From NCBI GenBank assembly GCA_043749775.1, contig JAYVCW010000208.1:47121-111120 (forward strand): DNA of 64,000 bases, written 5' to 3'. The stretch's first letter is position 1; every line of letters starts with the position of its first letter. The notes under the pieces were generated by a model. The model did no database searches, was not told the DNA's origin, and saw only the letters and a list, made by a program, of their open reading frames with translations. The translations under genes and the position numbers were made by a program. Source of the stretch: Acidobacteriaceae bacterium (GTDB taxonomy: Bacteria; Acidobacteriota; Terriglobia; Terriglobales; Acidobacteriaceae). This document shows positions 17,952 to 53,886 of the stretch, one piece after another.

Positions 17952-17983
17952 CGCCCGCTGCTGTTTGAAGACAGAGGACATGG

Positions 17984-18694: not shown

Positions 18695-18710
18695 GATCTC
18701 GTGATTCCTC

Positions 18711-20375: not shown

Positions 20376-20401
20376 CGACCAAGCAATATCCCGGCGAAGC
20401 C

Positions 20402-26207: not shown

Positions 26208-28286
26208 TCACGACTTCTGCAAGAGGCGCGTAACCTCAGCCTCGGGATCATGCACAACAGACTTCAGTAGGTTCTTGGCATATCGACACAAGGTGGCGAA
26301 ATTGGTTTCGTACCAGCAGCAATCGCCCATGTTCGGCGAAAGCCCGCAAAAGTAACGGAATTTTTCCACTGATTCGCTCGACACCAGCATTCCCGCCGCT
26401 ACCCGGTGGTTTCCATCCAGTATTGTGAAGGGGCCGGTTTCGTCGCGCCCGATCAGAAGAATTGCACCGAGGTCGGCGCTATCCGTGATAAGCCCGCGAA
26501 GGCTTCGTATCTTGGCTCGGAAGCCCTCCTGAGCGGCGTCCTCCGAAGGCCCGGTAGCGATATGCTGCACAACCTCGCTCAAGGCAAAGTCCCCGCCTGC
26601 CAGTTTGCGCCAGTGCGCACGGGGGAACACATAAACTCGATCCAGATCCGATTTGCGGATCTCTACCTCAAACCATTGTGTGTCCTTGGGAAGCTCTCTC
26701 CATAGCGCGCCGTGTCGGATGAAGAACAGCGCACGCCGCAATTTGTTTTGGTGCGCATCTTCCAGGTCGGGGTCACTCACGAAGCGGTCAAGTGATTGAT
26801 AATTCTTGAAATCGGGCGAGCGAAAATCGGTCTTAAGGAATTCCGAAATTACTTCATGTTCTGCAACTTGTCTTATTCTTCGAATCCCCTCAAATGAGGC
26901 GCTAGTGCCTGTGAACTCGGTGCCTACCAGGGCACGAACGACAATGGGGGCCGCGACTACCGCCAGCAAAAACAAGACCATGACCAACTGCACCCAGATC
27001 ACTTGCGCAAGCGATGCGTGGAATCGGTAGAGAGCGGGCACGAGAACGGCGCCGAAAGCCAGTTGCACCCATGCGGTGCTGACGATCTTGTGCGACATTT
27101 CATAAAGAATGATGACCACGCTGAGCGAATAAATAGTCGTCATCCCCGCATAGAGGGCAAGCAAGCTGGGAAGGTTGTAATCGGTCGCAGTACCGAACTG
27201 TGCGCCGAACAATCCTGCCCAAATTCCCGACGGCGCCAGGCGCAGACCAATCGTCACCGCCAGCCCGATTGCCGACACTAGCAACAGTGAGGTGCCCAGC
27301 GCGCCCTGGTCGCGGCGATTCTGGCTGCGGGTTTCGGCAACAATCGGAAACATGCTGCTGACTACAGAGAAAGAAAGAAAGTAAACCACCCGGCCGATCA
27401 GCGCAACGGCGGCGTAAAGCCCCGCTCGCGGGCCGGCAAAAAAGTGTTTCACTACCAGGATGTCAGCGTTGTTGATGATTACCACTCCGGCGAAGAACAC
27501 CAGCGCCTGCAGACCTTCGCGGAAAGCGACCCCGACCGGCGGCCTGGAACCGCTCGCGGCGGCCCGTTGCGGAGCAGCGAAGATATAAGCCATCACCACC
27601 GAGGCAGCATTGGCTGCGATGACTCCGGCGGCTCCATACCCAAGATAAATCAGCGCTACCGAACCTCCGAGTTTTACCGAGCCTTCCAACACTACGTTGA
27701 TGGTGACGCGGCGAAACAGGCACGAGCCCTGGAGGTAGCCGCGCCGACTCCCAAGCGGCACGTAAAAAACAGCCGCAACTGCGAGCAGGCTCACGAGCCG
27801 AGTACTGGGTAAATTCAGATATACGGAGATCGGGGATTGGAGCGCAAACAGAACTACTCCTGCGAGAATGCCGCACGCCCAAGCGCTCCTGTGAAACCGG
27901 CGGTAAGACTCGATCTTCGCTTGCGGTGAAGCACCCTGCGCCACAATTTTTGCCGAAACCAGTTGAAAGGAGAGCGTCACTGCCGAAACCAAAATCAGCA
28001 GGGTACACACTGCCGCAACAGCTCCGAAGCCCGAAGGTCCCAGAAAGCGCGCTACCGCGATGGTGTAGAAGAGGTTGATTAGGGTGACGGATCCTGTACC
28101 CGCGAGCAGCACAAAACTACCGGACAGGACGCGGGATACGAATGCCTTCGATTCAATATTTCGCTGGGTGTTCAATTCTCGCTTGATTTCACGTTCGGAT
28201 TCCAGCCAGTCCAAAGAAAGGCTTCCTTCAGAGTGTCTTTCCTGGTGCAAAACGCCTGACGACTGGTTATCAATGGGAGTTGACAC
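26208..28286 (-). CDS. MOP/Wzx-like polysaccharide flippase fused to a C-terminal soluble domain with a ParB/Srx-like DGxHR motif
   Basis: 692 aa. Residues ~50-480 form about 12-14 TM helices typical of polysaccharide biosynthesis (Wzx) proteins. Residues ~490-692 are hydrophilic and contain ILLIGRDETGPFTILDGNHRVAAG. Confidence 0.7.
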   Translation of the reverse strand: MSTPIDNQSSGVLHQERHSEGSLSLDWLESEREIKRELNTQRNIESKAFVSRVLSGSFVLLAGTGSVTLINLFYTIAVARFLGPSGFGAVAAVCTLLILVSAVTLSFQLVSAKIVAQGASPQAKIESYRRFHRSAWACGILAGVVLFALQSPISVYLNLPSTRLVSLLAVAAVFYVPLGSRRGYLQGSCLFRRVTINVVLEGSVKLGGSVALIYLGYGAAGVIAANAASVVMAYIFAAPQRAAASGSRPPVGVAFREGLQALVFFAGVVIINNADILVVKHFFAGPRAGLYAAVALIGRVVYFLSFSVVSSMFPIVAETRSQNRRDQGALGTSLLLVSAIGLAVTIGLRLAPSGIWAGLFGAQFGTATDYNLPSLLALYAGMTTIYSLSVVIILYEMSHKIVSTAWVQLAFGAVLVPALYRFHASLAQVIWVQLVMVLFLLAVVAAPIVVRALVGTEFTGTSASFEGIRRIRQVAEHEVISEFLKTDFRSPDFKNYQSLDRFVSDPDLEDAHQNKLRRALFFIRHGALWRELPKDTQWFEVEIRKSDLDRVYVFPRAHWRKLAGGDFALSEVVQHIATGPSEDAAQEGFRAKIRSLRGLITDSADLGAILLIGRDETGPFTILDGNHRVAAGMLVSSESVEKFRYFCGLSPNMGDCCWYETNFATLCRYAKNLLKSVVHDPEAEVTRLLQKS

Positions 28287-28649
28287 CGTGCTCCTTCGCG
28301 GAAACTACGAGCGACGCTTATGCCTTCCCTCAGATGCACAATACCTTCGCAAGGCTGCACTGTCGAGACCTTCTATTAAATCAGATGGCCGACCACTTCT
28401 AGGCTGAAAAGCAGGCCCGGAGGCCGTCTGGGCGGTAGCACCAGGTGCAAGATAGTTTGGACTTGGTAGAGCGTTATTCCGCTCGGAAGCCTTAGACCGG
28501 TGCAATAAAAAACGCCGGAACATCAGTATTTCACCCGATCCGCAATCGAACATCTTTCTGAAATCATGAATCATCTCAGTTGACCGAGATGACTGGAACG
28601 AGCGCTCTTGCGGGGGCCGCATCGCCAACCGAGTCAAAGGAGAGAGAAC

Positions 28650-29606
28650 GTGGAACTTGGAGCGATCGTAGTAGTCCCGGAAAGTCCTTGCACTTTTCAA
28701 AGTGTGAGCCGAGAGGCGTCCTGTCCGTTGCCGCTGTGGCCAGTGGCTGGCAAGAATTTGATTCAGGACTGGAGCGATAAGGTTCGCCGCATTGGTGCCA
28801 GCATTGTTGCGGTGACGCCGGGCGGGGATGGCTCAACTGCAAGCCGCAAGTTTCAGGCAGCCTGGAACCTTGCAAAGCAGGGAGTCGAACAGCTCTTGGT
28901 GATTTCCGTAAAGTCTTATGCGGAGATTGATCTGGTTGACTTTGTGAAGTTCCACCGGGACGCCCAAAATCCCGCCTCTGAGGCGTGCGACCACGAAGGC
29001 TCGCTCGGCGTCGAACTTCTGAGCTCTAAGACCCTAAATCCTAGCAACATTTTCTCGGGGTCGAACTCCCCGAACGGCAACAACGCAGTGCGATATAGTT
29101 TTAACGGTTATGCCAAGCGCCTTCATTCGGTAAAACTCTATCGGGATCTTGTTTCTGATGCCCTCCGCGGTCGCTGCGCACTTACCCCTAGCGGGTTGCA
29201 GACAGGCGACCGCGTCTGGATTGGGCAAAATACGCGGATCGCCCCGTCGGTACGCTTCCTCGGCCCATGTTTCGTCGGAGATGGAACTGTTCTTCGGGAT
29301 TTTGTGTCTATCGGGCCGTATGCCACGGTGGAGAACCGTTGTCGCGTTGAGAGCGGGACGACGATTTCCGGCTCCAGCGTCATGCCGAACACTTTCTTGT
29401 CTGCCGGCCTGAATATCCGCCGCTCGATCGTGGACGGTTCCCGCTTGGAACATCTCGACTCTGGAATCATTGTTGATCTTAGCTCTTCCGCACTGGGAGG
29501 ACGCATACCAGCCAAGGCGCAGGTAGTCGAAGACTACCAGGCGAGCCCGCTTTCGTTCCGGGGCGCCGCGGGGTCGGGCGGCGCTGCCCGGCTTGTCGAT
29601 GCGTAG
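28650..29606 (+). CDS. NDP-sugar pyrophosphorylase-like protein with a degenerate N-terminal motif and a C-terminal left-handed beta-helix
   Basis: GTG at 28650 has AAGGAG 8 nt upstream. CPLPLWPVAGKNLIQDW parallels PKPLLPVAGKPLI of sugar nucleotidyltransferases, but the GxGTRL loop is replaced by VPESPCTFQSVS. Hexapeptide repeats occupy the C-terminus. Confidence 0.5.
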   Translation: MELGAIVVVPESPCTFQSVSREASCPLPLWPVAGKNLIQDWSDKVRRIGASIVAVTPGGDGSTASRKFQAAWNLAKQGVEQLLVISVKSYAEIDLVDFVKFHRDAQNPASEACDHEGSLGVELLSSKTLNPSNIFSGSNSPNGNNAVRYSFNGYAKRLHSVKLYRDLVSDALRGRCALTPSGLQTGDRVWIGQNTRIAPSVRFLGPCFVGDGTVLRDFVSIGPYATVENRCRVESGTTISGSSVMPNTFLSAGLNIRRSIVDGSRLEHLDSGIIVDLSSSALGGRIPAKAQVVEDYQASPLSFRGAAGSGGAARLVDA

Positions 29607-29617
29607 AACGGGAAATC

Positions 29618-29998
29618 ATGGAAACCAAAATCCCAGTTAAGCAACTTTCCCAAGGCAGTGCTGCCATCGCGGATAGCTTTCTTCGCGAAGTGCGCGATAC
29701 GGTTCGGGCGATGCTGCGGCCCGCGATGATCTTGGAGTTGCCCGCCGGTGCGAGGCTTGACAGCTTTGCAATTGATTTTTTAATTCGCGCAGCCTCCGAA
29801 GCTGCGACGTACGACGCTGAAATCGCAATCGTAGCCACCTCTCCGGAACACCGTCTTCTTCTCGATGTGACGCGATTCAGCAACGTGTTGCCCGTATTCA
29901 GATCGTTAGAGGAAGCGCTCGCCCATCTCGAAAACCACTTAAAGCCCGTCGTAGCCGCCCGAACGCCCCAGTCCATATCTCCTGTTTCGATCGCATAA
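29618..29998 (+). CDS. STAS-domain protein (anti-sigma-factor-antagonist-like)
   Basis: 126 aa. ILELPAGARLDSFAIDFLIRAA resembles the SpoIIAA/RsbV segment around the phosphorylatable Ser. Confidence 0.55.
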   Translation: METKIPVKQLSQGSAAIADSFLREVRDTVRAMLRPAMILELPAGARLDSFAIDFLIRAASEAATYDAEIAIVATSPEHRLLLDVTRFSNVLPVFRSLEEALAHLENHLKPVVAARTPQSISPVSIA

Positions 29999-30111
29999 AA
30001 GCATCGACAACAAGCTCCTCTTCTACAGGATTCAGTGTAGGTCCTCCGGATACAACGATTCCTTGCCGCGCTCATCCAAGAGGGGGAATTGTTAAAGAAA
30101 AGGGCCCCGCC

Positions 30112-30849
30112 ATGAGATCGTCGAGTCACCCAGAGAGCTTTGCACTAATTGTCCCCACGTTAAACGAAGCCGAAAACATTTCGCTTTTGCTGTCTTCAGC
30201 GCAAGCGGCGCTTGAGTCTACAAACAATCCGTACACCATTATCGTCGTCGATGATGGCAGCGCGGACCGCACGCGAGAGATTGTGCGCGAACACTCGCGC
30301 AATGATTCGCGCATTCAGTTGGTCACTCGCGACGGCGAGAGCGGCCTTGCGGGGGCCATTCTTTGCGGATGGGAACATTCAGACGCGGAACTGCTTGGCG
30401 TAATCGATGCAGACCTGCAACACCCGCCCGATCTGCTTCCATTGATGCTAAGCGAGTTCGGCAATGACGTAGATATCGTGATTGCCAGCCGCTACGCGAA
30501 AGAGAATGGAGTTCGAGGATGGAACCCGGTCCGCGCCACCATATCGCGGCTCAGCACCATCGCCACGCGGCCGTTGTTGCGCGGGCGACCCGGCGTCACC
30601 GATCCGATGTCCGGCTTCTTCATAGTGCGGCGCCAGTGCATTCAGGGGCTTACTTTCCAAAGCAAGGGCTTCAAGCTCCTTTTGGAAATTCTGGTTCGCG
30701 GGCACATTCGCGGCGCCCGGGAAGTTCCCTATAGCTTCGGACTGCGCCATGCCGGCAAGAGTAAAGCCAGCGCTGGCGTTGCCGTGCAGTATCTCTTTTT
30801 GTTGGGCCGCCTGTCGTGGGACACCCGAGTTCGGTCAGGCCAACGATGA
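30112..30849 (+). CDS. GT2 glycosyltransferase, polyprenyl-phosphate sugar synthase type (Dpm1/GtrB/CsbB-like)
   Basis: 245 aa with LIVPTLNEAENI, VVDDGSADRT, IDADLQHPP and SGFF, the canonical order for Dpm1-like GT2 enzymes. Confidence 0.85.
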   Translation: MRSSSHPESFALIVPTLNEAENISLLLSSAQAALESTNNPYTIIVVDDGSADRTREIVREHSRNDSRIQLVTRDGESGLAGAILCGWEHSDAELLGVIDADLQHPPDLLPLMLSEFGNDVDIVIASRYAKENGVRGWNPVRATISRLSTIATRPLLRGRPGVTDPMSGFFIVRRQCIQGLTFQSKGFKLLLEILVRGHIRGAREVPYSFGLRHAGKSKASAGVAVQYLFLLGRLSWDTRVRSGQR

Positions 30850-32105
30850 AGATCGCGCTGGTTACGGCTTTCCCGCCAAGCCGCAAAGCTCTTGCCGAAT
30901 ACGGGTTTCACCTCGCGGAGCAACTGCAACAAAACCCCGGAATCGAGCTCACCGTCCTCGGAGACATCCTGGACGAAGCGGAGCCCGAATTGCCTGGATT
31001 CAAAGTTGTTCGTTGCTGGGGTTTCGATCGCTTATCTAACGTGGCCGCCATCACGCGCTGCGTGCGTTCGGTGAAGCCCGATCTGGTGTGGTTTAATCTC
31101 GGCTTCGCGAGCTTCGGATCCAAGCCTGTAGCAGCGATGTTGAGCCTGGCTACGCCGATGGTGACGAGATTTTCCGGCGTGCGCACCCACATCACCCTTC
31201 ACCAGTTGTTTGAGACCGTGGATTTGGTCGATGCGGGCGTCACCAGTCCCAGGCTGTATCGGACCGCCGGCTGGCTGGCCACGCACATGCTGCTGGGAGC
31301 GAGTTCGGTATCAGTGCTGTTGCCAGCCTACCGGCGCATGCTGCAAGACAATTACAAGCGTGGACGCGTGAGCGCACGCTCCCACGGCATTTTCGCTGCT
31401 CGACCTGATCCGCCGGACTTCAGCAAGCGGGGAAATCCCGGGCATCGCGTTTTGGCGTTTGGCAAATGGGGCACGTACAAGAAGCTGGAAGTATTAATCG
31501 AGGCCTTCGAGCAGGTCAGTGCCGAGATTCCGGAGGCCGAGTTGATTATTGGCGGAGGCGACCATCCTAAAACACCGGGATACGTCGCCGCGACTGCGGC
31601 GCGGTGCGCCAACAAGAAAATTCATTTCCTCGGCTACGTCGCCGAAGATGCGATTCCCGAGCTGTTCAAATCAGCGAGCGTGGCCGTGATGGCATACACA
31701 TCGTCCGCTGGATCGAGCGGAGTAGCTCATTTGGCGGCACAGTACGGAGTTCCAATCATTGCCTCAGACATTGCAGACTTTCGCGAACTGGCCGATCACG
31801 AACATATGGCGATGGAGTTTTTCCCGTCCGGAGATGCCAACGCCCTTGCCGGCAAACTTCGCGACCTTCTGCAGTCGCCAGAGAACCTGACCGCAATGGC
31901 GGAACAGAATTTCGCAGCGGCCATTCATCTGACCATGCCTGAAGTTGTGCGAGAGTACCTTCGTGGCTTCGAAAAAGTACGACGGCTGAATGTTTTGCGG
32001 GACTTGTCAAAGGTCCGACAATCACCGGCGTGGCTGCCGGGCCGTCAAGCACTGGCTAGCAAATTGGGGAATGACGTCCAGTCATGGGACAATTCAGGCG
32101 ACTAG
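30846..32105 (+). CDS. GT4 (GT-B fold) glycosyltransferase
   Basis: The ATG at 30846 overlaps the GT2 stop (ATGA). The N-terminus is MKIALVTAFPP and the C-terminal half has the E-x7-E-like region (SSAGSSGVAHLAAQYGVPIIASD). Confidence 0.8.
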   Translation: MKIALVTAFPPSRKALAEYGFHLAEQLQQNPGIELTVLGDILDEAEPELPGFKVVRCWGFDRLSNVAAITRCVRSVKPDLVWFNLGFASFGSKPVAAMLSLATPMVTRFSGVRTHITLHQLFETVDLVDAGVTSPRLYRTAGWLATHMLLGASSVSVLLPAYRRMLQDNYKRGRVSARSHGIFAARPDPPDFSKRGNPGHRVLAFGKWGTYKKLEVLIEAFEQVSAEIPEAELIIGGGDHPKTPGYVAATAARCANKKIHFLGYVAEDAIPELFKSASVAVMAYTSSAGSSGVAHLAAQYGVPIIASDIADFRELADHEHMAMEFFPSGDANALAGKLRDLLQSPENLTAMAEQNFAAAIHLTMPEVVREYLRGFEKVRRLNVLRDLSKVRQSPAWLPGRQALASKLGNDVQSWDNSGD

Positions 32106-32245
32106 GCGGTGGCTTTAGATAGAACTACAAAGTAACCGCTCCGGGAAGCCTTCCCATTTCAATTCCATCCACCCCGCGCGCGCTTACGCAGCGACTTCTT
32201 CGCCGTTCTTCAGTCTTCCCGGCGAATGTACGAACAGGAATCTAC

Positions 32246-36448: not shown

Positions 36449-36647
36449 GTCAGCTCCAACGTAAGCGAACCGCCAAAAGTCAGGTGTGGCTTGGCGTCAA
36501 TCTCAGATGCGGAAAATTCTGTAGGTGGTTGGATGACATTTCGATCCGATTTCCAACACTTTAGCCCCGAAACCGCCCTTCTGCAAGCAACCGTCCTGTA
36601 GATCCTCGAATCGAAGACCTGACTCCTCAGAGTCTGGAGCAACTGCC

Positions 36648-38417
36648 TTGACTTCTGATGCCGGTTTTTTGCGGCGGCCAATTCCGCTCACGATGATCAT
36701 TCTGCTGGCCCTGGCGGTCCACGGCCCTTTGCTGCTGATGCAGCTGCCGGCAACGACTTCGTATGATGCCAACTTCCACATCTTCTTTGGATCACACTAT
36801 GCACACCATTGGTTCAATCCATGGAATGAAAAGTGGTTTGCAGGATTCTCGCAGGCGACTTATCCGCCGCTGACGCACCAGGCGATTGCTTTGCTTTCGT
36901 ATCTAGTTGGGCTTACCGAAGCCTTCATGCTCGTCCAGCTCGCCGCGGTGATTCTGCTGGCGGTCGGGGCCTACCGGTTCGCGCGTTTATGGGTAAACGA
37001 ACGCGCTGCCAGTTACGCCGGAGTTCTTGCGATTTTTACCGGAACGATTTCGTTTCTGGTTTACTCCGCGGGCCAGTTGCCCACCACGACTTCGGCGGCG
37101 CTGTTCTTCCTCACCCTTCCGTACCTCTATATGTGGTCTTTGCGAGGCGGGGCGCGGACGCTGCTCAAAGGCGTTGCGTTAGCGTTGGCCGCAGCCTCGG
37201 CCCACCACGTGACCCTGATCTTTGGCTCCGTGCTGTTTGCGGCTCCGGTTATTGCGCTGGCATGGCATGACGCTCGCGAACAGGGACGCAGAGTTTCCCC
37301 GGTCATCCAACGGGCCGTAATCTTCGCTCTGCTGGCAGCTCTCGGCGTGGGCATTGTGCTTTTGCCTTACTGGGTCGCGATCATTCGTCATCCCATCGAG
37401 CAGATGCCGATCCCCCACGCCAGCCGGTCGAATTTTCTGATGAACTGGGTCTACGGCTTGAATTATTTTGTCGTTCCCTATGGCGCGCTCATTCTGGCAC
37501 TGCCTTTCATTGTGATCAAGGGCGCTTCAACTCCCCGACTGCGAATTCTTCTGATCGCGTTCTGGGCAACGTTCCTGATTGCGCTCGGGGGTACGACTCC
37601 TGTTCCTAAATGGATCTTTGGGCGCGCGTTTGAGATCCTCACTTACGAACGCTTTACCTTGTGGGCGACGATTCTCGCCCTTCCTCTGGTGGGTTTGCTG
37701 GTTGAGCGCATTATTGACCGCTGGCATTCCACTGGAGCGATTGCAGTCAGCTGTGCTGCGCTCGCGACCATGGGCTTTGCCTTCGTCTGGCTGGTGCTCA
37801 GCCCGTTTCACGTCTCCAGCGCGCTGAACGTGGACCCAGTCGTTTCCTTCTTAAACCGCGACCAGCACGACCAGTACCGCTATTTGACTCTGGGCTTCGG
37901 CAACGCGCTGCCCAAGGTGTCCACCTATGCCAATGCAAGCAGCGTGGACGGGGAATACAATTCCGCCCGCCTACTTCCGGAAATGACGCGCTACGGCGCC
38001 GCCCAGTTGACGAATGCGAAATTCTTCGGCTCCGCCGGAATGGACTCGCTCAGCGCCATGCTCCGGCATGCGAATCACTATGGACTGAAGTATGTGTTTG
38101 TCCACGATCCGTTCTACGAGCCGGTGCTGGTTTTTGCTGGCTGGCGGCAAGTGGAAACATTCGATTCCGGTGAGATCACCGTTTGGTCGAAAGACGACGC
38201 TCCTCCGGCGAGACAAATTCCGTCCGATTCGGTGCCGCCGCCTTGGCAGGGTTTGCTGTGGGGGATTCTACCGATCGGCAGTGCGATTCTTGCGATCGTG
38301 CTTCTAGTCTTGTTACCTGAACGGGGCACCCAAATACCGGAAGTGCGCCTGGTGCCGCAAGCCACGCCCGAAGCCGTTTACTCCAGTCAGATTCAGTCCA
38401 GCGGAGTCCGCCCATGA
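36648..38417 (+). CDS. Polytopic membrane protein, GT-C-like (PTPS-related / YfhO / ArnT-like architecture) with a periplasmic C-terminal domain
   Basis: 589 aa with about 11 TM helices followed by a soluble ~150-aa region and a final TM. The N-terminal loop is YDANFHIFFGSHYAHHWFNPWNEKWFAGFS..YPPL. The start is uncertain (TTG at 36648 or ATG at 36693). Confidence 0.55.
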   Translation: MTSDAGFLRRPIPLTMIILLALAVHGPLLLMQLPATTSYDANFHIFFGSHYAHHWFNPWNEKWFAGFSQATYPPLTHQAIALLSYLVGLTEAFMLVQLAAVILLAVGAYRFARLWVNERAASYAGVLAIFTGTISFLVYSAGQLPTTTSAALFFLTLPYLYMWSLRGGARTLLKGVALALAAASAHHVTLIFGSVLFAAPVIALAWHDAREQGRRVSPVIQRAVIFALLAALGVGIVLLPYWVAIIRHPIEQMPIPHASRSNFLMNWVYGLNYFVVPYGALILALPFIVIKGASTPRLRILLIAFWATFLIALGGTTPVPKWIFGRAFEILTYERFTLWATILALPLVGLLVERIIDRWHSTGAIAVSCAALATMGFAFVWLVLSPFHVSSALNVDPVVSFLNRDQHDQYRYLTLGFGNALPKVSTYANASSVDGEYNSARLLPEMTRYGAAQLTNAKFFGSAGMDSLSAMLRHANHYGLKYVFVHDPFYEPVLVFAGWRQVETFDSGEITVWSKDDAPPARQIPSDSVPPPWQGLLWGILPIGSAILAIVLLVLLPERGTQIPEVRLVPQATPEAVYSSQIQSSGVRP

Positions 38418-39520
38418 ACCGCACTTTGCCTATCGTAATCGCAGGAGTCACGGCGATCCTGGTAGCCATCGCCTGGATCCAAGCCGGAGGAGTGAAACGT
38501 CACGAGATTGCCTCCGCCGCAACGCCAGAAGAGGCCGTGCAGGCCCTGATGGCCGATATTCAAAACCACAACTGGGACGCCGCGTATGCGCGGCTCGACC
38601 CAAGCAATGACGTCGAGAAGGCGGCGTTTATTCGCGACGTCGCCGGCAGCGACGGCAGCCTTCGCACCTACGCGGCACTGCAAAGCTTTGACGTCCACGC
38701 TTTGCACGCCGACGCGGACCATGCTGATATGCGAGTCCGGGTGAAGTGGTCCACCGCTGTGGGTTCGCTTGATGACGTACGAGATTTGCCCGTCCGACGC
38801 GACGCGTCCGTATGGCGAGTGGTGTGGCCCAAGCCAAAATTCGCCGCCGTGCCGCCGCAAGTGATTCCTGTCAACTACCTGCGTTGGGACATTATTGGAC
38901 GCGATAACGCTGAAGCTTGGGGAGCCCAGGGAGTCGACGGCCCTAACGTCCGCATTACCTCCATGAATGCCGTTGAGCGGCCCGACCGCGTGGTCATCAT
39001 GGGCGAGATTGAGAACGAAGACACAGTTCCAGCTTACGTGAACGTGAGCGCCACGCTTCTAAAGCCCGATGGATCGACGCTGGACGAAGAGAGCAGCTTC
39101 GACCTCATCTCGCACGCTTTGCTTCCGAAACAGGTGTCTCCGTATCGGATTGATTTCCCCGGCGTCCGGATGGCGCAAATCAAGAGCGTACGCATGAATC
39201 CGCGCGCTCTGCTGGTGCCAGCTAGCGCGGACCCCGTCATTGCGGTGGCGGACCAGTCCGTGACCCAGGATGGCCTTGGCCGCCACGTGCTGAAGGGCGA
39301 CCTCATTAATGAGAGCGGGCAGACGGTTAACATCGCGCAAGTGCTTTCCACTTTTTACGACTTGAGCGGCAAAGTGATTTGGGTCTCCGGCGGCTACATT
39401 GATCAAGCCCTGTTGCCGCAGGTGTCCACACCGTTTGCAGTGGATGTGCCCGATGACGTGATCTCGCACATGAAGAACTATCACGTGGTCGTCAACCATT
39501 ACGTGCGGATGGGTCAATGA
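38414..39520 (+). CDS. Membrane-anchored exported protein with an NTF2-like N-domain and two repeated beta-sandwich modules
   Basis: 368 aa, with an ATGA overlap with the upstream gene. Two modules share the pattern G(E/D)(I/L)xNE...V...ALLP(K/Q)QVS.P; the second contains STFYDLSGKVI (FxLYD-like). Confidence 0.6.
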   Translation: MNRTLPIVIAGVTAILVAIAWIQAGGVKRHEIASAATPEEAVQALMADIQNHNWDAAYARLDPSNDVEKAAFIRDVAGSDGSLRTYAALQSFDVHALHADADHADMRVRVKWSTAVGSLDDVRDLPVRRDASVWRVVWPKPKFAAVPPQVIPVNYLRWDIIGRDNAEAWGAQGVDGPNVRITSMNAVERPDRVVIMGEIENEDTVPAYVNVSATLLKPDGSTLDEESSFDLISHALLPKQVSPYRIDFPGVRMAQIKSVRMNPRALLVPASADPVIAVADQSVTQDGLGRHVLKGDLINESGQTVNIAQVLSTFYDLSGKVIWVSGGYIDQALLPQVSTPFAVDVPDDVISHMKNYHVVVNHYVRMGQ

Positions 39521-40407
39521 AAATGGGAACCCCTGCGCGAAGCTTGAACCTGCGGTTGGCCTGCATGCTTTTCCTGGCCTGGGCTTGCGCCGCCTCAGCG
39601 GTGGCGGTCACCATTCATGCGCCGACGACTATAAAGGCGGGAAACGGGTTCAGCGTTGCGACTGACGGGTCGGGTTCGGCAACGCTGTATCTACTCGGGC
39701 CGGGCACTGCATTGAAGCAAGCCATCCAGCTCGGTGGGAACGCGAACATTCCTGGCGAGAAAGTGACCATTGCGGGGCAGTATCGCGTAATCGTCTGTTC
39801 GGGAGACGACTGCTCTCAGAGCGCGCTCGATGTGCAAGCGGGGGAGCCGGCGAGGTTGAGTTTCTTCCTGCATCCCTCGCGCGTACCGGTATCGAGGCCC
39901 GACGCCATCGATGGGACGGCATTCGTTTTCGACCGTTATTACAACCCGGTCTTCGTGCAATCCAAAGTAGATTTCCAAATCACGCCCGCCTCCGGCGCTG
40001 GATCTTCCAAGGTGGTTTCCAGCGACCATGGCGTTGCCTGGATACGGTTGGGATCGGGGCGCGCTGGCGGGCCGGTGCGAATCACCGCGAGCATCGCCGG
40101 GGTCAGCGAACCGCGCGTGATTCAACAGGTGGCGGCTGATGCGTGCAGCCTGCGGATCAAAGCGGTCCGCGATGCTAAAGGCCTCACCGTGGAAACGGAC
40201 CCGGTGCGCGATTGCAGCGGCAATCCCCTGCCGGACGGCACGATTGTCTCATTCACCACCAAGGGTTCCGCCGGTATGACTACCGTAGACACACCCATCA
40301 AGAAAGGAATCGCGCGGACGCAGCTGACGGTCAAAGGCAATGCGCGCGTTTCAGTGGCCTGCGGTGTAGTGCTCGGTAATGAGCTTTCCGTCGCGGGGAA
40401 CATGTGA
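39517..40407 (+). CDS. Secreted Ig-like/beta-sandwich protein
   Basis: 296 aa, with an ATGA overlap with the upstream gene, a signal peptide (MLFLAWACAASAVA) and repeated beta-rich modules. Confidence 0.6.
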   Translation: MKMGTPARSLNLRLACMLFLAWACAASAVAVTIHAPTTIKAGNGFSVATDGSGSATLYLLGPGTALKQAIQLGGNANIPGEKVTIAGQYRVIVCSGDDCSQSALDVQAGEPARLSFFLHPSRVPVSRPDAIDGTAFVFDRYYNPVFVQSKVDFQITPASGAGSSKVVSSDHGVAWIRLGSGRAGGPVRITASIAGVSEPRVIQQVAADACSLRIKAVRDAKGLTVETDPVRDCSGNPLPDGTIVSFTTKGSAGMTTVDTPIKKGIARTQLTVKGNARVSVACGVVLGNELSVAGNM

Positions 40408-40919
40408 TGATTCGACGCCAAACCCTCGTGCTGTTGGCGCTCACCGCCGTGTTGACGGCTGCGGCGAGCGGCCAGTCTTTGCCGCAAGTGAGCCTGAAAG
40501 CGGATGCGCTGAGCCCGCGCTCTATTGAACCGTTGACGGAAACCAACATCGCGCGTGATTACGCGATCGCCTGGAAAGACTTGTCCCAGGCACTGGAGCA
40601 AAACCGTACAGACCTTCTGAACGAGCAGTTCACCGGTTTCGCACACGACCGGCTGAAAGAACGGGTCGCCGACCAGCAGCGCATTGGCCTGCGCACGCAG
40701 ATTGTGGACCACGGGCACAAGCTGAAGGCGATTTTCTATTCGCTCGACGGTGGCGCAATGCAACTGTTGGACGAGGCGCAGATACAAATCCAGATCTTTG
40801 ACGGCAGCCGGCTCATCGATACCCAAGACGCGTCTCAGAAGTACATCGTTTTAATGACTCCCGGTGCGGATCGCTGGTATGTCCGCTCCATGGAATCGGC
40901 CCCCACTTCGAAACCGTAG
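40404..40919 (+). CDS. Secreted NTF2/Tim44-like small protein
   Basis: 171 aa with a signal peptide (LVLLALTAVLTAAASGQ). The start (GTG 40404 or ATG 40407) overlaps or abuts the upstream stop. Confidence 0.55.
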   Translation: MMIRRQTLVLLALTAVLTAAASGQSLPQVSLKADALSPRSIEPLTETNIARDYAIAWKDLSQALEQNRTDLLNEQFTGFAHDRLKERVADQQRIGLRTQIVDHGHKLKAIFYSLDGGAMQLLDEAQIQIQIFDGSRLIDTQDASQKYIVLMTPGADRWYVRSMESAPTSKP

Positions 40920-40981
40920 CCCCTTGGCCCAAACAACCCTTAGCACGGAGATCCCATCGTACGGGGTCTCAGAGCCCGGGC

Positions 40982-41980
40982 ATGAAACTTCTTCGTTACG
41001 GATTGATAGTCCTGATGGTGGCTTTAGGCCAGTTCCCCACTGCCTGTAGCCATGCGAACGTGCGTCCGGCGGTGGCCAGCGGCTTGCCGGGACCGGGTGA
41101 TGGCCCAAAGATTCTTGCGGATTACCAGCCCTGGTTCGGGGACCCCAACCACATTGACGCCGGGTACAACAGCCAGGACCCTGCGGTATTGCGCAAACAG
41201 ATTGCGAACGCGCGCAGGATGGGAATCTACGCATTCGCCGTGGACTGGTACGGGCCGCGCCAGCCCTTTCTCGATCGCAGCTACGCGATTCTGCAGAAAA
41301 TCGCCAGCGAGGAGCATTTCCACGTCACCCTGATGTACGACGAAACTCAGGAAGACAACGGTCACGCCACGGAGGATGCGCTGGAGGCACTGGATCTCGC
41401 TTACAAAAAGTACATCGGTCCTGACAGCCCCGGTCGCGACGCTTATGTGACCCTGCAAGGGCGCCCTGTAATCTTCATATTTCCCAAGCGAGGGAACACC
41501 GACTGGAACCAGGTTCGGCAAGTGGTCAATGGGTGGCCAAACCCGCCAATCCTTCTTTATCAAGATGAGCCCCCGGCCCAGTACGACAAAGCTTTCGATG
41601 GAGAATATGCCTGGGTCTTTCCCGGTAGCGCCGGCTGGAAACCAGATGGGCAAGCCTGGGGCGAAGACTATTTGAATAAGTTTTACAACCGGATGCGAAC
41701 GAAACACCCTGGGAAAATTGTAGTGGGCGGAGTGTGGCCGGGGTTTGACGACTCCAAAGCTTCATGGAGTCTGCACCGCCGCATTGATTCGCGATGCGGC
41801 CGGACATTTGAAGACACCCTGCGGGTTTTTCATGAAAACGAAGATCCCAGCCACCCGATGCCGTTCCTGCTGATCGCCACTTGGAATGACTACGAAGAAG
41901 GAACCGCGATTGAACCAGGCATCCCCCGTTGCGATGCCCAGTCCTCGGCAAGGTTACCCAGGCGTGAGGCGGAACGCTAG
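40982..41980 (+). CDS. Exported glycoside hydrolase candidate, GH71/GH99-like TIM barrel
   Basis: 332 aa with a signal peptide. YQPWFG...FAVDWYG and the C-terminal ATWNDYEEGTAIEP resemble conserved segments of GH71/GH99-like endo-alpha-glycanases. Confidence 0.5.
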   Translation: MKLLRYGLIVLMVALGQFPTACSHANVRPAVASGLPGPGDGPKILADYQPWFGDPNHIDAGYNSQDPAVLRKQIANARRMGIYAFAVDWYGPRQPFLDRSYAILQKIASEEHFHVTLMYDETQEDNGHATEDALEALDLAYKKYIGPDSPGRDAYVTLQGRPVIFIFPKRGNTDWNQVRQVVNGWPNPPILLYQDEPPAQYDKAFDGEYAWVFPGSAGWKPDGQAWGEDYLNKFYNRMRTKHPGKIVVGGVWPGFDDSKASWSLHRRIDSRCGRTFEDTLRVFHENEDPSHPMPFLLIATWNDYEEGTAIEPGIPRCDAQSSARLPRREAER

Positions 41981-42062
41981 TCCCGCGAGCATACCGCTCC
42001 CTCTCGATGCACAGGCATTGAGGCGGAATTCATGCCGAGGCGGCAGATAGCAACTGTGGAGG

Positions 42063-43163
42063 GTGAAGGTGAAATCCGGCTTCGATCAGCAGAGTACTCT
42101 TCACGAGAATGACGTGTTGCGCGTATTGCCACACGTGGTTGAGGTGGCGGGAAATTCTCATCGCCAAAATTCCTTTTGCGAGACCCGCCCGCTAACCGGC
42201 CTGCTGCAGCGGCTTCGGGAAAACAAGTTCGCGCTTCGTGCCATGGTCGCTGCCTTCCGGGGACTGCAGAAGATGGGCCTGTCAGTGATCCCGAACCACT
42301 TTTACTGGCCAATTCCAGATCTGCGTGAAATGGAGGTCCGGGATTGGCAGACACCGGCTTCCCCGGCTGGTTTGGACCTGAATCTCGGGAAGCAAGTGGA
42401 TCTGGCTCGAGAGATACTTGCTCTCCACCAGGAAGAGTGGTCCTTCCCCGACCAACCTGCCGGCCCGGTTGAATATCACTACAACAATGGCTTCTTCGAG
42501 ACCGTCGACGCTGAGGTGGCTTACAGCCTGGTGCGCCACTCGAAGCCGTCGCGAATTATCGAAGTCGGCGGAGGATACAGCACTCGGGTGCTGGCCGCTG
42601 CGCTACGGGCGAACCGCGACCAGGGAAACAAAGGCGGGAAGCTGTTCACTATCGAGCCTTTTCCCAACCCCACCTTGGAGGGGATCACAACCCTGATACC
42701 GCAACGCGTTCAGGATGTCGATCTGGATTTCTTTCTCTCGCTTGGGCCCGGAGACATTCTTTTTCTGGATTCAAGCCACGTGGTTAGCGTCGGAAGCGAT
42801 GTCGTCCGAGAGTATCTGGAGATCCTTCCCCGCCTCCGGCCTGGTGTGCTGGTGCATGTGCATGACATCTTTCTCCCTTCGGATTATCCCCGCGACGCGG
42901 TACTTTCGAAGCTTTGCTTCTGGTCTGAGCAATACCTGTTGCAGGCTTTTCTCGCCTTCAATCCTCACTTTGAAATTGTGTGGGGAAGCAGCGCTATGCA
43001 GCAGTTCCATCCGGATGTGCTGGAGGAAACGTTTCCGCGCTGGAAGAACAGCTACTGCCGGATCGCCAAAGCCACACGGCAATTCCTGCCGACTTTAGAC
43101 GGCAACCGCGTGTGGCCGTCGAGCTTTTGGATGCGACGAGTGGCCGCGCCTCGAGTCAATTAA
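42063..43163 (+). CDS. Class I SAM-dependent methyltransferase
   Basis: IIEVGGGYSTRVLAAAL is motif I and LFLDSSHV is the post-II region. An N-terminal HFYWPIPDL segment is common in glycan-associated methyltransferases. The start is uncertain. Confidence 0.65.
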   Translation: MKVKSGFDQQSTLHENDVLRVLPHVVEVAGNSHRQNSFCETRPLTGLLQRLRENKFALRAMVAAFRGLQKMGLSVIPNHFYWPIPDLREMEVRDWQTPASPAGLDLNLGKQVDLAREILALHQEEWSFPDQPAGPVEYHYNNGFFETVDAEVAYSLVRHSKPSRIIEVGGGYSTRVLAAALRANRDQGNKGGKLFTIEPFPNPTLEGITTLIPQRVQDVDLDFFLSLGPGDILFLDSSHVVSVGSDVVREYLEILPRLRPGVLVHVHDIFLPSDYPRDAVLSKLCFWSEQYLLQAFLAFNPHFEIVWGSSAMQQFHPDVLEETFPRWKNSYCRIAKATRQFLPTLDGNRVWPSSFWMRRVAAPRVN

Positions 43164-43335
43164 GCCCTCATTTCTACTTCCCGACTCACCGAAGGGTGGG
43201 TTGCTTCATGCACTTCTGATTAAAGAATTGGCGATCCTGTATTGCCCCCACCCCGGCCCTAACTTTAAAATTTGGACACACTAAGGATTTCACTGTAGAT
43301 CCTCGTGTTCAATCTAGTAGGGCCGAGGCCGTGTA

Positions 43336-44394
43336 ATGGGAAAATTCGCTCTTGTCTGCTGTATCCTTTTCTGCTTCTCCAGTTTAGATGCGGCCTTTGC
43401 GGGCGTCACCGTAACGGCTCCAGCCAACGGTTCGACCGTTGCCTCCTCCGTGCAGTACGTGGCCACCGCTTCATCCCCTGCTTGCGCTAAAGGCGTAGAT
43501 TCCATCGGTATTTACTCCGGTCCGGGTCAACTGGCATACGTCACCAAGGGAAGCTCGCTGAACACCATTCTGAACTTTAGCCCCGGGACGTACAACACCA
43601 CCGTTCAGCAGTGGGACAACTGCGGCTGGTCTTCCAGCCAACAGGTCACCATTACCGTGGGAAGCGGCGGAGGCGGTACCGGAGGCGGCGGAACCTTCTG
43701 GAACCTGCAGGCAAACACCGCAGGTTGGACCGGCTACGGCCTGCTTCCTCCCGTTTATGCCATCTGCCCCAATTGTTCTCCTGCTGGCCCCAGCGTGAGC
43801 TGGTCTTGGACACCGGGCGTTTCAGTTGCTTCGAGCAGCTCTCAAACGGTGAAAACCACGATCGGCGGCACCCAGGCTTACACCGATGTTTTGTGGAACA
43901 ACCATCTAATCGGCGACTTTTCTTCCCAGGGCCTGCCCGACTACAACCACACCCTGATTCCGACGCTTCATAATTTCACCTATGACGTCTGGTTCTACCT
44001 GAGCAATAACACAGCTCCGCAGGCGCTCGAGTTTGATATCAACCAGTTTGTGAATGGGCAGTCTTATATCTGGGGGCACGAGTGCCGTGTTGCAGGCGGC
44101 CACCAGTGGGACACCTGGAATAATGCAGGGCAGTTTTGGGTTCCGAGCGGAATCGGTTGCTGGCCGATCGTCGGCTGGAATCATCTGGTGATCCAGGCTC
44201 AGCGCACTTCCGACAATCACCTGCTGTTCAAGTCCATTAGCCTCAACGGCACAACCAACGCGCTGAACCGCTACGACTCGCCCACGCCAACCACCTGGTA
44301 CGGAGTCACCATCAACTACCAGATCGACGGCAACACCTGGCAGACACCGTATGCAGTGCATCTGGACAAGTTGAATTTTACCTGGCAGCCGTAG
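43336..44394 (+). CDS. Secreted two-domain protein (Ig-like N-domain, Gly linker, beta-sandwich C-domain)
   Basis: 352 aa with signal CCILFCFSSLDAAFA and a GSGGGGTGGGG linker. It is followed by a strong terminator. Confidence 0.65.
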   Translation: MGKFALVCCILFCFSSLDAAFAGVTVTAPANGSTVASSVQYVATASSPACAKGVDSIGIYSGPGQLAYVTKGSSLNTILNFSPGTYNTTVQQWDNCGWSSSQQVTITVGSGGGGTGGGGTFWNLQANTAGWTGYGLLPPVYAICPNCSPAGPSVSWSWTPGVSVASSSSQTVKTTIGGTQAYTDVLWNNHLIGDFSSQGLPDYNHTLIPTLHNFTYDVWFYLSNNTAPQALEFDINQFVNGQSYIWGHECRVAGGHQWDTWNNAGQFWVPSGIGCWPIVGWNHLVIQAQRTSDNHLLFKSISLNGTTNALNRYDSPTPTTWYGVTINYQIDGNTWQTPYAVHLDKLNFTWQP

Positions 44395-44424
44395 TTCGCG
44401 AGGTTCGGCTGGTGAATTGATGTC

Positions 44425-44456
44425 AAAAAGGCACAGCCTAAAGGCTGTGCCTTTTT
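44425..44456. terminator. Bidirectional intrinsic terminator between convergent genes
   Basis: AAAAA-GGCACAGCC-TAAA-GGCTGTGCC-TTTTT. This is a perfect 9-bp stem flanked by an A-tract and a T-tract. Confidence 0.8.
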
Positions 44457-44507
44457 CTTCTCCCGAACGGTTCAAGGGTGGCCGGATTAACGGGCGTGTT
44501 TCCCGTC

Positions 44508-45218
44508 TCACCAGCAGGGATGGACCGGCGTCACCGTGGCAAAGGTGGCAAAACCCTGCGTCGTCTGGTTCACCCGGCGGTAAACCCCGCTTTGCAGATG
44601 GTAGTGCGTCCATTGCACCATGCCGTTGTTCTTCTGCATGGCAAAGGTTTCCTGATCCAGGCAGTTGCTGTAGTTGATGTCGCACGAGTACCGGAATGAC
44701 AAGGTCAAGGTTGACGCCAGCGGGAGGCTCCCGATGGTCTGGGTATAAGGCCCCCAGATTTCATTCACGACGTAGCCAAGGTTCTGCGTTATGAAACTGG
44801 CGCATGAAGAATGAATGTCGTAGTCGGTATGCGCCGATTGCACCTGGATTGAAGCCAGCTTTCCGGGAATCGCAGGCTTGGTGATGCACCGAGGCATCCA
44901 GGGCAGTCCCTGCCGGAATATCTTGTAGGTAGTTGGATCGTTCCACACTTGTTCAGTTATCGATTGATAAATGTAGCGCTTATCGAAGGTGTCCACATCC
45001 CATGGAAACCCGGCCGGTCCTTTAACCCAGTAGAAATTTCCGGCTGTCGGATAAACGACATTGAAATGACCATTGCTAGTGGCTGCTTGCGGTGCCATCC
45101 AATCGAGCATGTCGTACTGGTTGGATTTGCAAGCCTGTGCACCAGCTTGAGTTAGGAGAGAAACAGACATAGCTACGCTTACGACCAACAGAACATTGAT
45201 CCGCATAACACTTCCCAT
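44508..45218 (-). CDS. Secreted Cys-containing protein of unknown function
   Basis: 236 aa with a signal peptide (VLLVVSVAMSVSLLTQAGAQA). No family was recognised. Confidence 0.6.
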   Translation of the reverse strand: MGSVMRINVLLVVSVAMSVSLLTQAGAQACKSNQYDMLDWMAPQAATSNGHFNVVYPTAGNFYWVKGPAGFPWDVDTFDKRYIYQSITEQVWNDPTTYKIFRQGLPWMPRCITKPAIPGKLASIQVQSAHTDYDIHSSCASFITQNLGYVVNEIWGPYTQTIGSLPLASTLTLSFRYSCDINYSNCLDQETFAMQKNNGMVQWTHYHLQSGVYRRVNQTTQGFATFATVTPVHPCW

Positions 45219-47144: not shown

Positions 47145-47174
47145 CGATCACCCTAGGGGCTGTAGGGATACGGC

Positions 47175-47207
47175 GCAACCGGGCCCGGCAATGCGGGGCC
47201 CGGTTGC
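47175..47207 (-). terminator. GC-rich hairpin downstream of the SYLF gene (terminator/attenuator candidate, no U-tract)
   Basis: GCAACCGGGCCC, a 9-nt loop, then GGGCCCGGTTGC (perfect 12-bp stem). It lies 21 bp after the SYLF stop and 31 bp before the response-regulator start. Confidence 0.45.
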
Positions 47208-47227
47208 ACAGAGGTGGTCGCCTTCAC

Positions 47228-47977: not shown

Positions 47978-48056
47978 CTTCGAACCTCCATGTTGTTCTG
48001 TCTTAGTCTCGGTTTCTTTCCGCGTTCAATCCGCGATCACCCTCTGCGCCGCTGTG

Positions 48057-53865: not shown

Positions 53866-53886
53866 CCGTTAGCCGCAGCTTGAACC

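Follow-up and report, generated by a model that had tools for sequence, protein, structure and literature searches.

Within a 64,000-nt stretch of contig JAYVCW010000208.1 from an Acidobacteriaceae bacterium (assembly GCA_043749775.1; hereafter the window, to whose numbering all positions refer) lies a cluster of genes for glycosyltransferases, a flippase-like membrane protein, an outer-membrane exporter, a glycoside hydrolase (GH) and several exported proteins (Table 1). An earlier note, prepared from the sequence alone, had proposed that the segment 26208-45218 encodes an undescribed envelope-glycan system, and all 14 of the open reading frames (ORFs) that it listed were recovered at the same positions and on the same strands from the ORF list and translations. 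Its arrangement of the genes in two divergent units also held: the gene for a 692-aa membrane protein of the MOP family (26208-28286, minus strand) lies opposite a plus-strand group at 28608-32105 across a gap of 321 bp, and the gene for a 1400-aa tetratricopeptide repeat (TPR) protein (32246-36448, minus strand) lies opposite a second plus-strand group at 36648-43163 across a gap of 199 bp. Overlapping start and stop codons (ATGA) are found between the genes for the family 2 and family 4 glycosyltransferases (GT2 and GT4, the latter read from the ATG at 30846), between those for a 589-aa membrane glycosyltransferase of the GT-C class and the adjacent protein p368, and between those for p368 and p296; the p296 and p171 genes overlap too. 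These overlaps indicate operons with translational coupling. The GT-C and its partner p368 belong to a core of seven genes that is conserved in nearly all of the close relatives described below.

The 589-aa protein contains approximately 11-13 transmembrane (TM) helices and a late TM segment at residues 532-555, as judged from hydropathy and an AlphaFold2 (AF2) model. It matches Pfam family PF10131 ("PTPS_related") with 34.3 bits, above the Pfam threshold of 26.4, and this family has been placed in the GT-C/PMT clan (PMC7801869). No sequence-level match in the PDB was obtained with the single sequence or with a profile. The AF2 model was computed from 48 sequences of two phyla and has a predicted local distance difference test score (pLDDT) of 80.9 and a predicted template modelling score (pTM) of 0.86. 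When the model was compared with the PDB by Foldseek, the top 28 matches were GT-C enzymes throughout, including AftD and AftA (the best), STT3, ArnT, AglB, PglB, ALG12, DPY19, EmbA and ALG3, with TMq values of 0.42-0.55 for the top 24 and 0.34-0.44 for matches 25-28; PimE and EmbB appeared further down the list with non-significant E-values. The model places an alpha/beta domain in the periplasm (approximately residues 385-535). Immediately past the first TM helix (residues 14-36) is Asp40, invariant in the 48 sequences, which span Acidobacteriota and Bacteroidota, and almost so in 40 further, more distant GT-C sequences. Because the N-terminus bears an Arg-Arg pair, Asp40 is assigned to the periplasmic side, where it fits the conserved acidic residue expected in the first periplasmic loop of a GT-C; its role is a prediction. 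The earlier note had described the protein as GT-C-like and anticipated such an aspartate, and on the predicted fold we identify it as a true GT-C.

The protein encoded next to the GT-C, p368, begins with an N-terminal anchor or signal peptide, as do p296 and p171. Among the top 150 representatives of the GT-C family, 53 are fusions of approximately 1000 aa in which a p368 homologue is joined to the C-terminus of the GT-C; this form is present in Bacteroidota (Lewinella, Saprospiraceae) and in other lineages. A second kind of fusion is seen in one 1007-aa member of the same 150 (P0122), in which residues 11-560 correspond to the GT-C and residues 593-994 to a GT4 sharing 49% identity with that of the window. 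With the C-terminus of the GT-C being cytoplasmic, this arrangement is topologically plausible, and a gene-calling artefact is also possible.

We mapped the conservation of the locus in close relatives by scanning one genome per GTDB species, which yielded 349 genomes with a close GT-C relative; in 80 of these, all Acidobacteriota and mostly metagenome-assembled genomes labelled Candidatus Sulfotelmatobacter, Acidobacteriaceae or Terriglobales, the surroundings of the GT-C were searched by tblastn with the window proteins. The GT-C, p368, p296, p171, the hydrolase, the TPR protein and the MOP protein were each detected in 71-80 of the 80 loci, one locus per species, in an order and orientation that are constant in nearly all of them, and most misses fell in loci truncated by a contig end. 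The proposal that the locus is a conserved unit, for which the earlier note had suggested a synteny map, is thus borne out, with the GT-C as the most conserved protein of the cluster. The remaining genes vary: the GT4, the GT2 (both counted within 10 kb of the GT-C), a methyltransferase and two trailing secreted proteins occur in between one and 25 of the 80 loci (Table 1).

The GT-C family appears small, since only 833 families at E <= 0.001 emerged when 1.84 billion cluster representatives were searched exhaustively. To follow the system over a greater distance we used 82 loci, consisting of 80 metagenomic loci found by a scan with a 7-sequence alignment and two from Lewinella. In Lewinella sp. 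W8, the gene for the GT-C+p368 fusion is flanked by genes for a GT2, a STAS protein, a MOP homologue and a GT4 homologue, and downstream of it lie genes for a p296 homologue, a p171-GH protein and a 689-aa TPR protein. Homology to the window proteins was detectable for the MOP protein, the GT4, the GT-C/p368 fusion and p296; by these sequence comparisons and gene content the same component roles recur in a second phylum, Bacteroidota. A GT4 homologue adjoins the GT-C in 60 of the 82 distant loci, mostly immediately upstream, and in many of these loci the GT4-GT-C pair is found without MOP or TPR genes. Small GT2s lie near the GT-C in at least 14 of the 82, and some of the loci hold additional GT-C families (PMT_2 and homologues of PIG-V-like mannosyltransferases). 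One metagenome contig (Ga0315312_1000089; 526-14802), with 46% GC and an archaeal-type DUF1616 gene, carries PMT_2, PF10131 and PIG-V-like GT-Cs in a single plus-strand run together with a GT2 and a GT4 homologue, which suggests that the GT4/GT-C pair may extend to Archaea.

From these comparisons the system can be read as three layers. The deep core is the GT4 together with the GT-C. An intermediate layer, common to Bacteroidota and Acidobacteriota, comprises p368, p296, the p171-glycanase pair, the MOP protein and the TPR protein, often with a GT2 and a STAS protein. An outer layer confined to Acidobacteriota consists of the TPR-barrel fusion, the GH99-like glycanase, an extra domain of the MOP protein and the genes of the left flank. 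This layering, read from gene content, departs from the earlier note in two respects. A triad running from GT2 through flippase to GT-C, to which the parts had been likened, does not emerge as the conserved core, the GT2 being found at most 10 kb from the GT-C in just five of the 80 close relatives; the GT4, to which no role had been given, is the deepest partner of the GT-C, adjacent to it in most of the distant loci and fused to it in one protein.

The 1400-aa protein consists of a signal peptide, approximately 980 aa of TPRs matching many TPR Pfam families, and a C-terminal barrel (encoded by 32249-33331) whose chain ends in ...RFTLY. The AF2 model of the last 361 aa contains 16 beta strands (pLDDT 80.4, pTM 0.76), and its Foldseek matches were outer-membrane barrels exclusively; the PgaA barrel (4y25) gave the best TM-score (0.51/0.61), and AlgE and BcsC were also among the matches. 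The C-terminal 384 aa gave no Pfam match even at E 10, including to the BCSC_C, PgaA barrel, PelB and Alginate_exp families. The architecture of PgaA, BcsC and PelB that had been suggested for this protein is thus recovered as TPRs followed by a predicted 16-strand barrel, with PgaA closest. In the 689-aa TPR proteins of the two Lewinella loci (L081, 15996-18065; L082, 16685-18754), the C-terminal 300 aa or so show by eye an alternating hydrophobic pattern like that of a barrel; comparison with the acidobacterial barrel profile by hhalign gave a probability of 0.1, and a profile search of the PDB returned nothing.

The 692-aa protein has a membrane domain of 12-13 TM helices (approximately residues 50-460) followed by a 230-aa soluble C-terminal domain. 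Its match to Polysacc_synt (PF01943) is below threshold (E 1e-4, 22 bits vs 28.2); it is homologous (E 1.6e-36) to a 420-aa Bacteroidota protein that carries PF01943, and for this reason we assign the membrane domain to the MOP family. Sequence and profile searches found no match among PDB sequences. The C-terminal domain (26208-26900) contains ILDGNHR and CCW motifs that are invariant in all acidobacterial orthologues, and is missing from the 420-aa Bacteroidota homologues. None of 10 orthologues gave a Pfam match for this domain (the best, to DndB, was E 0.2 in one member), and the PDB gave none either. The domain could be a nucleotide-binding regulator, a suggestion that leans on its motifs: DGNHR resembles the DGQHR/ParB-Srx signature, a likeness that we take only as a lead. 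The MOP gene immediately follows the TPR-barrel gene, and shares its strand, in most relatives, and in a few it has moved downstream.

In single-sequence Pfam searches, the hydrolase scored 32.1 bits against GH99 (threshold 33), 26 bits against WbsX (threshold 25.1) and near the threshold against GH71. A 16-sequence profile matched the Bacteroides GH99 endo-alpha-mannosidase 4acy with E 1.4e-9 over 257 positions, aligning "atwNDYEEGTaiE" with the catalytic "tsfNEWHEGTqIE" (NDYEEGT vs NEWHEGT). The first catalytic Glu is replaced by an invariant Asp (D303) and the second is retained as the invariant E306, so that the catalytic motif is largely kept and the protein is likely a glycanase of the endo-alpha-mannanase type. 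The presence of its gene in nearly all close relatives, the profile match and a p171-glycanase protein in Lewinella agree with the idea that a dedicated glycanase is integral to the system. In distant loci a p171-like domain makes up approximately residues 70-280 of glycanase-like proteins of 530-650 aa, and p296 homologues are encoded after the GT-C/p368 fusion gene. The C-terminal part of the Lewinella p171-containing protein matches clan GH-A enzymes (GH158, beta-mannanases, GH5_18); the glycanase role is thus apparently held there by a different family.

The GT2 matches PF00535 (E 1.4e-32), and its best match in the PDB is the dolichol-phosphate-mannose synthase (DPMS) of P. furiosus (5mlz; E 7.7e-44, residues 10-238), whereas the matches to ArnC (E 5e-16) and the GtrB-like sll0501 (E 7e-11) are far weaker. 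It contains the DADLQHPPDLLP motif and lacks a TM helix, as do Dpm1 and Ppm1, and GT2s that adjoin the GT-C in two distant loci (L090 and L118) share its DADLQHPP motif. These similarities make it very likely a polyprenyl-phosphate hexose synthase of the Dpm1/Ppm1 type, in agreement with the Dpm1-like activity that had been assumed for it; the hexose is probably mannose, a choice that follows the best match. The Lewinella GT2 matches DPMS and GtrB weakly (E approximately 3e-4), and may resemble Alg5, to judge by its DTQCGxK motif. The GT4 contains the Pfam domains Glyco_trans_1_4 and Glycos_transf_1, and its homologue in Lewinella is recognized with E 2.9e-78. Its best PDB match is the mannosyltransferase PimA, which is weak (E 2.3e-5), and its NCBIfam matches (EpsE, MSMEG_0565, BshA and others) are all far below the cut-off. 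Two smaller genes accompany the glycosyltransferases. The STAS protein scores 30.3 bits (threshold 22.6); Lewinella (L081) likewise has a STAS gene next to its GT2 and MOP genes, and another occurs in a further distant locus (L153). The 332-aa protein that the earlier note had read as a pseudo-pyrophosphorylase contains left-handed beta-helix (LbH, hexapeptide) repeats only, and Pfam and NCBIfam scans detected no nucleotidyltransferase domain in it. As a block between the MOP and TPR-barrel genes, LbH-STAS-GT2-GT4 is found here and in one of the 80 relatives (L001).

The window was also scanned for the parts of known polysaccharide pathways, taking the locus genes and those flanking ORFs of at least 150 aa that were judged likely genes (Pfam). 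In these ORFs, Pfam and NCBIfam revealed no processive synthase (BcsA, PgaC, Alg8, PelF/G), and there was no match to Wzy_C, Wzz, Poly_export, Bac_transf or Glycos_transf_4. The absence of a synthase and of Wzy, Wza and Wzc, as the earlier note had it, therefore stands for the scanned window; it does not stand as a general statement that the system has no synthase, the GT4 and MOP proteins being parts of the Pel type. Literature searches, which covered few subscription journals, turned up no paper on the system or on a pathway centred on PF10131.

Table 1. Genes of the locus and its conserved neighbours in the window, with the evidence for each and its occurrence in 80 loci of close relatives.
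Feature	Position	Strand	Evidence and occurrence
NTP_transf_5 (PF14907) protein, 357 aa	20402..21475	-	Pfam E 5.9e-10; 69/80 loci; in relatives mostly right downstream of the GH gene
Secreted TPR protein (TPR395), 395 aa	21512..22699	-	TPR Pfam matches, signal peptide; 64/80 loci
Secreted p309, 309 aa	22841..23770	+	Signal peptide, no Pfam match; 64/80 loci
Phosphoesterase (PF04185)	24068..25600	-	Pfam E 2.6e-67; 36/80 loci; tie to the system uncertain
MOP flippase-like protein, 692 aa	26208..28286	-	Weak PF01943, Bacteroidota homologue; 71/80 loci
Hexapeptide-repeat (LbH) protein, 332 aa	28608..29606	+	Variable accessory; among 80 relatives in L001 only
STAS protein, 126 aa	29618..29998	+	PF01740 E 3.8e-7; 1/80 loci
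Soluble GT2, 245 aa	30112..30849	+	PF00535, PDB 5mlz; 5/80 close relatives
GT4, 429 aa	30846..32105	+	Pfam; 25/80 close relatives within 10 kb; likely start ATG 30846
Outer-membrane TPR-porin, 1400 aa	32246..36448	-	TPR families and 16-strand barrel model; 74/80 loci
GT-C, 589 aa	36648..38417	+	PF10131, AF2/Foldseek; 80/80 loci
p368, membrane-anchored, periplasmic	38414..39520	+	Fused to GT-C elsewhere; 78/80 loci
p296, exported, Ig-like (Big_1-like)	39517..40407	+	Weak Big_1 match; 76/80 loci
p171, exported small domain protein	40404..40919	+	N-terminal domain of a glycanase-like protein in distant loci; 73/80 loci
Distant GH99-family hydrolase, 332 aa, exported, possibly lipoprotein	40982..41980	+	Pfam and profile; 73/80 loci
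Methyltransf_24 S-adenosylmethionine methyltransferase, 366 aa	42063..43163	+	Pfam E 2.9e-13; 7/80 loci
Secreted p352, 352 aa, outside the conserved system	43336..44394	+	Signal peptide, no significant Pfam match; 1/80 loci
Secreted p236, 236 aa, outside the conserved system	44508..45218	-	Signal peptide, no significant Pfam match; 10/80 loci

The boundaries of the system differ from the span first proposed. The core genes within it stood, whereas neither edge did: NTP_transf_5, TPR395, p309 and the phosphoesterase are conserved neighbours in relatives, which puts the start of the unit near 20402 and not at 26208, and the right end is variable. The methyltransferase is an accessory gene of this variable end and possibly a candidate for methylation of the glycan; the two proteins that follow it do carry signal peptides, as had been noted. 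The phosphoesterase has a lipoprotein-like signal (LGGC) followed by a poly-Gly linker of about 11 glycines. That this member of the phospholipase C/acid phosphatase family might cleave a phospholipid-anchored glycan is pure speculation.

Other genes of the window lie outside the locus. The region 15166-21475 encodes two NTP_transf_5 proteins (17127-17951 and 20402-21475, only the latter of which accompanies the glycan locus in relatives), a short sulfotransferase ORF (15166-15657), a metallophosphoesterase and a DUF748-like membrane protein. To the right of the locus (46491-50072) are genes for two LuxR-type response regulators, an extracytoplasmic function sigma factor and an Ysc84 protein; LuxR-type regulators are found near the locus in approximately 49 of the 80 relatives and may control it. 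Further on (52255-60274), two PF10091 "Glycoamylase" proteins (536 aa, and 1513 aa with the domain C-terminal) are encoded beside a 606-aa fused ATP-binding cassette exporter; this cluster shows no synteny with the GT-C locus in relatives and is maybe separate and glucan-related. At the other end (511-13249, minus strand) lies a block for sugar and sugar-acid catabolism that is unrelated to the glycan locus, with genes for a major facilitator superfamily transporter, a DUF4432 protein, an SMP-30/gluconolactonase, a short-chain dehydrogenase, an enolase-superfamily dehydratase, a RhaT-like permease, an M81 peptidase-like protein, an IclR regulator and an aminotransferase.

Several known systems resemble parts of the locus. 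Close to it in enzyme types is the mycobacterial assembly of phosphatidylinositol mannosides, lipomannan, lipoarabinomannan and arabinan, in which a cytoplasmic GT4 (PimA/PimB'), a GT2 without TM helices (Ppm1), a flipping step and GT-Cs that use polyprenyl-phosphate sugars (PimE, MptA/B/C, AftA-D, EmbA-C) act together; AftD and AftA are the best fold matches of the locus GT-C. The locus differs in the family of its GT-C, its diderm host, its TPR-porin and glycanase, and a MOP flippase encoded with them, and no phosphatidylinositol anchor is known for it. A comparable order of enzyme types is found in eukaryotic and archaeal lipid-linked oligosaccharide assembly (Alg2/Alg11, Rft1, Dpm1/Alg5, Alg3/9/12, PIG-V): ALG12 and ALG3 are among the fold matches, and PIG-V-like and PMT_2 GT-Cs stand with GT2, GT4 and PF10131 in distant, possibly archaeal, loci. 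Unlike those pathways, the locus shows no evident oligosaccharyltransferase context and appears to end in export through the outer membrane.

That export recalls the synthase-dependent systems, whose exporters (PgaA, BcsC, PelB, AlgK/AlgE) likewise combine a TPR array with a barrel and are encoded with glycanases (PgaB, BcsZ, PelA, AlgL). In contrast to these systems, the scanned window contains no membrane GT2 of the BcsA/PgaC/Alg8 type, the membrane partners are a GT-C and a MOP protein, and the GH99-like glycanase belongs to a family that known synthase-dependent systems do not use. Of the parts of a Wzx/Wzy-dependent pathway, the scanned ORFs show only the MOP protein. Such pathways in Myxococcus use the PgaA-like porins WzpX/S/B (bioRxiv 10.1101/2022.02.11.480155), so that, as in the locus, a flippase-dependent pathway is coupled to a PgaA-like outer-membrane barrel; unlike the locus, they have Wzy, a polysaccharide copolymerase (Wzc) and a Wza-like outer-membrane polysaccharide export protein, and their barrels have 18 strands and no TPR array. 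The three-component systems with which the locus had been compared (GtrA/B/C, ArnC/EF/T, CsbB/GtcA/YfhO and the GT136 pentofuranose system, PMC11127046) share with it a polyprenyl-phosphate-sugar synthase, a flippase and a GT-C. They decorate the glycan of another pathway and come without a dedicated exporter or glycanase, whereas here the GT4 is the constant partner and the GT2 the least conserved one, and the flippase is of the MOP type in place of the GtrA/SMR type. The analogy is reasonable, yet it misses the conserved core. The earlier judgement that this is not a described pathway holds in part: the combination does appear in no paper that we found, and the individual ideas have precedents in Myxococcus and the mycobacteria. 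The locus is apparently an uncharacterised combination of known types of module, and what is new is the combination.

Functional linkage of the components is argued by the seven-gene synteny, the ATGA coupling and the fusions of GT-C with p368, of GT-C with GT4 and of the p171 domain with a glycanase. Taking the gene products together, we give about an even chance to the proposal that the locus encodes a conserved machine for the assembly and export of an envelope glycan, which would be either an exopolysaccharide or anchored to a lipid. Starting from the observed protein identities and genetic linkage, we infer the catalytic steps, the sugar, the acceptor and the direction of flow as follows. 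On the inner face of the cytoplasmic membrane, the cytoplasmic GT4 would start or build a lipid-linked glycan from a nucleotide sugar, and the MOP protein would flip this intermediate to the periplasmic face. The soluble Dpm1-like GT2 would supply polyprenyl-phosphate-mannose, and the GT-C with p368 would lengthen or branch the glycan in the periplasm with lipid-linked donors. The proteins p296, p171 and the GH99-like hydrolase may bind, trim or release the chain, with p171 as the putative partner domain of the glycanase. The TPR domain would serve as a scaffold for periplasmic factors, and the 16-strand barrel as the passage of the polymer through the outer membrane. Within this scheme, the more specific proposal that the PF10131 GT-C, p368 and the GT4 constitute the polymerase of a distinct periplasmic polysaccharide route, driven by polyprenyl-phosphate monosaccharide donors in the manner of mycobacterial mannan and arabinan and with a TPR-porin as the exit in diderms, is possible and at present doubtful.

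In this organism the glycan is probably mannose-rich. The hints, though independent of one another, are indirect and each is weak: the DPMS-like GT2, the similarity of the GT4 to PimA, the GH99-like hydrolase, whose only solved relatives are endo-alpha-mannosidases, the PIG-V-like GT-Cs and the beta-mannanase matches in Lewinella. Several observations weigh against the assembly and export machine as proposed, and some of them touch on the sugar. The PimA match and the single-sequence GH99 match are weak, and the sugar specificity of the GT2, GT4 and GT-C cannot be read from sequence. Only 5 of the 80 close relatives have the GT2, and 25 the GT4, at a distance of up to 10 kb from the GT-C, so the donor-making and priming enzymes, if used, must be encoded elsewhere in most of them. 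The scanned ORFs include no priming phosphoglycosyl transferase and no known lipid-anchor enzyme, and the TPR-barrel fusion is confirmed in Acidobacteriota only.

Other explanations were weighed against the same evidence. The GT2, MOP protein and GT-C might only add single side-chain sugars to a glycan made elsewhere, such as O-antigen or another exopolysaccharide, with the TPR-barrel and the hydrolase belonging to that pathway. The DPMS-like GT2, the genuine GT-C and the lack of a backbone synthase or priming enzyme among the scanned ORFs would suit this explanation, as would the proposal of a MOP-superfamily (MATE) flippase for undecaprenyl-phosphate-ribose in a three-component system (PMC11127046). 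We consider it unlikely, since the GT2 is the least conserved member (5/80), and the GT-C stays with the TPR-barrel, the hydrolase, p368, p296 and p171 and, at depth, with the GT4; the most conserved protein of the cluster, fused elsewhere to p368 or a GT4, fits a central enzyme better than a serotype-style decorator. A different division of labour is known from Pel, which combines a GT4, a MOP-type membrane protein, a TPR-porin and a periplasmic glycanase, and in which the GT4 and the MOP-family protein are proposed to make the polymer. Here, similarly, the GT4 might polymerise from nucleotide sugars and the MOP protein export the product (as PelF and PelG), with the TPR-barrel corresponding to PelB, the hydrolase to PelA, and the GT-C acting as an accessory modifier or anchor-transfer enzyme. 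The parts list of the locus matches Pel in kind, the GT4 is a deep core member, and the conserved cytoplasmic C-terminal domain of the MOP protein could be regulatory. No PelG Pfam match was found, however, no PelF model is among the NCBIfam matches of the GT4, and the locus genes scanned include no PelD-, PelE-, PelC- or PelA-type proteins; nor would a Pel-like division explain why no other components are as conserved and universal as the GT-C and its periplasmic partner, or why many distant loci have a GT4-GT-C pair but neither MOP nor TPR genes, all of which leaves it improbable.

The GT-C could instead act on proteins, mannosylating exported substrates such as p296 in the manner of PMT, TMTC or STT3, with polyprenyl-phosphate-mannose or a flipped oligosaccharide as donor and the TPR protein handling the substrates. 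Oligosaccharyltransferases (STT3, PglB, AglB) and DPY19 are among the top fold matches, PF10131 belongs to the PMT/GT-C clan (PMC7801869), several exported proteins are co-encoded and the GT2 is DPMS-like. Against this, the locus bears the hallmarks of polysaccharide export in its dedicated glycanase and its PgaA-like 16-strand porin, the best fold matches, AftD and AftA, build polysaccharides, and an acceptor-peptide motif such as WWDYG was not seen, although none was searched for; we regard protein glycosylation as quite improbable. Decoration, a Pel-like route and protein glycosylation are all disfavoured because the GT-C and p368 are the most conserved and most widely spread components and stay with the exporter and the glycanase. 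Chance juxtaposition of unrelated envelope genes, to which the insertion of LbH-STAS-GT2-GT4 here and in a single relative and the variable right-hand genes might point, is scarcely credible in view of the seven-gene synteny in 71-80 of 80 loci, the translational coupling, the three independent gene fusions and the recurrence in a second phylum. The synteny refutes it for the core, which leaves the methyltransferase and the two secreted proteins (42063-45218) as the only genes to which it may apply.

The proposed assembly and export machine centres on an enzyme family, PF10131, of which no member has been characterised and for which sequence searches find no solved relative. The fusions of GT-C with p368, of GT-C with GT4 and of p171 with a glycanase make testable predictions of binding partners, and the cultivated Lewinella offers a possible experimental entry point. 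Members of the Terriglobales, including Candidatus Sulfotelmatobacter and its relatives, are among the most abundant bacteria of acidic soils and peat, and their surface polymers affect soil aggregation, water retention and carbon storage. If the GT-C is a polymerase, the textbook polysaccharide pathways would gain a periplasmic route driven by polyprenyl-phosphate sugars, and TPR-porin exporters would not be confined to synthase-dependent systems. Such a route would be distinct from the Wzx/Wzy, ABC-transporter, synthase and extracellular-sucrase pathways, and would be present in hundreds of species of soil Acidobacteriota and in Bacteroidota.

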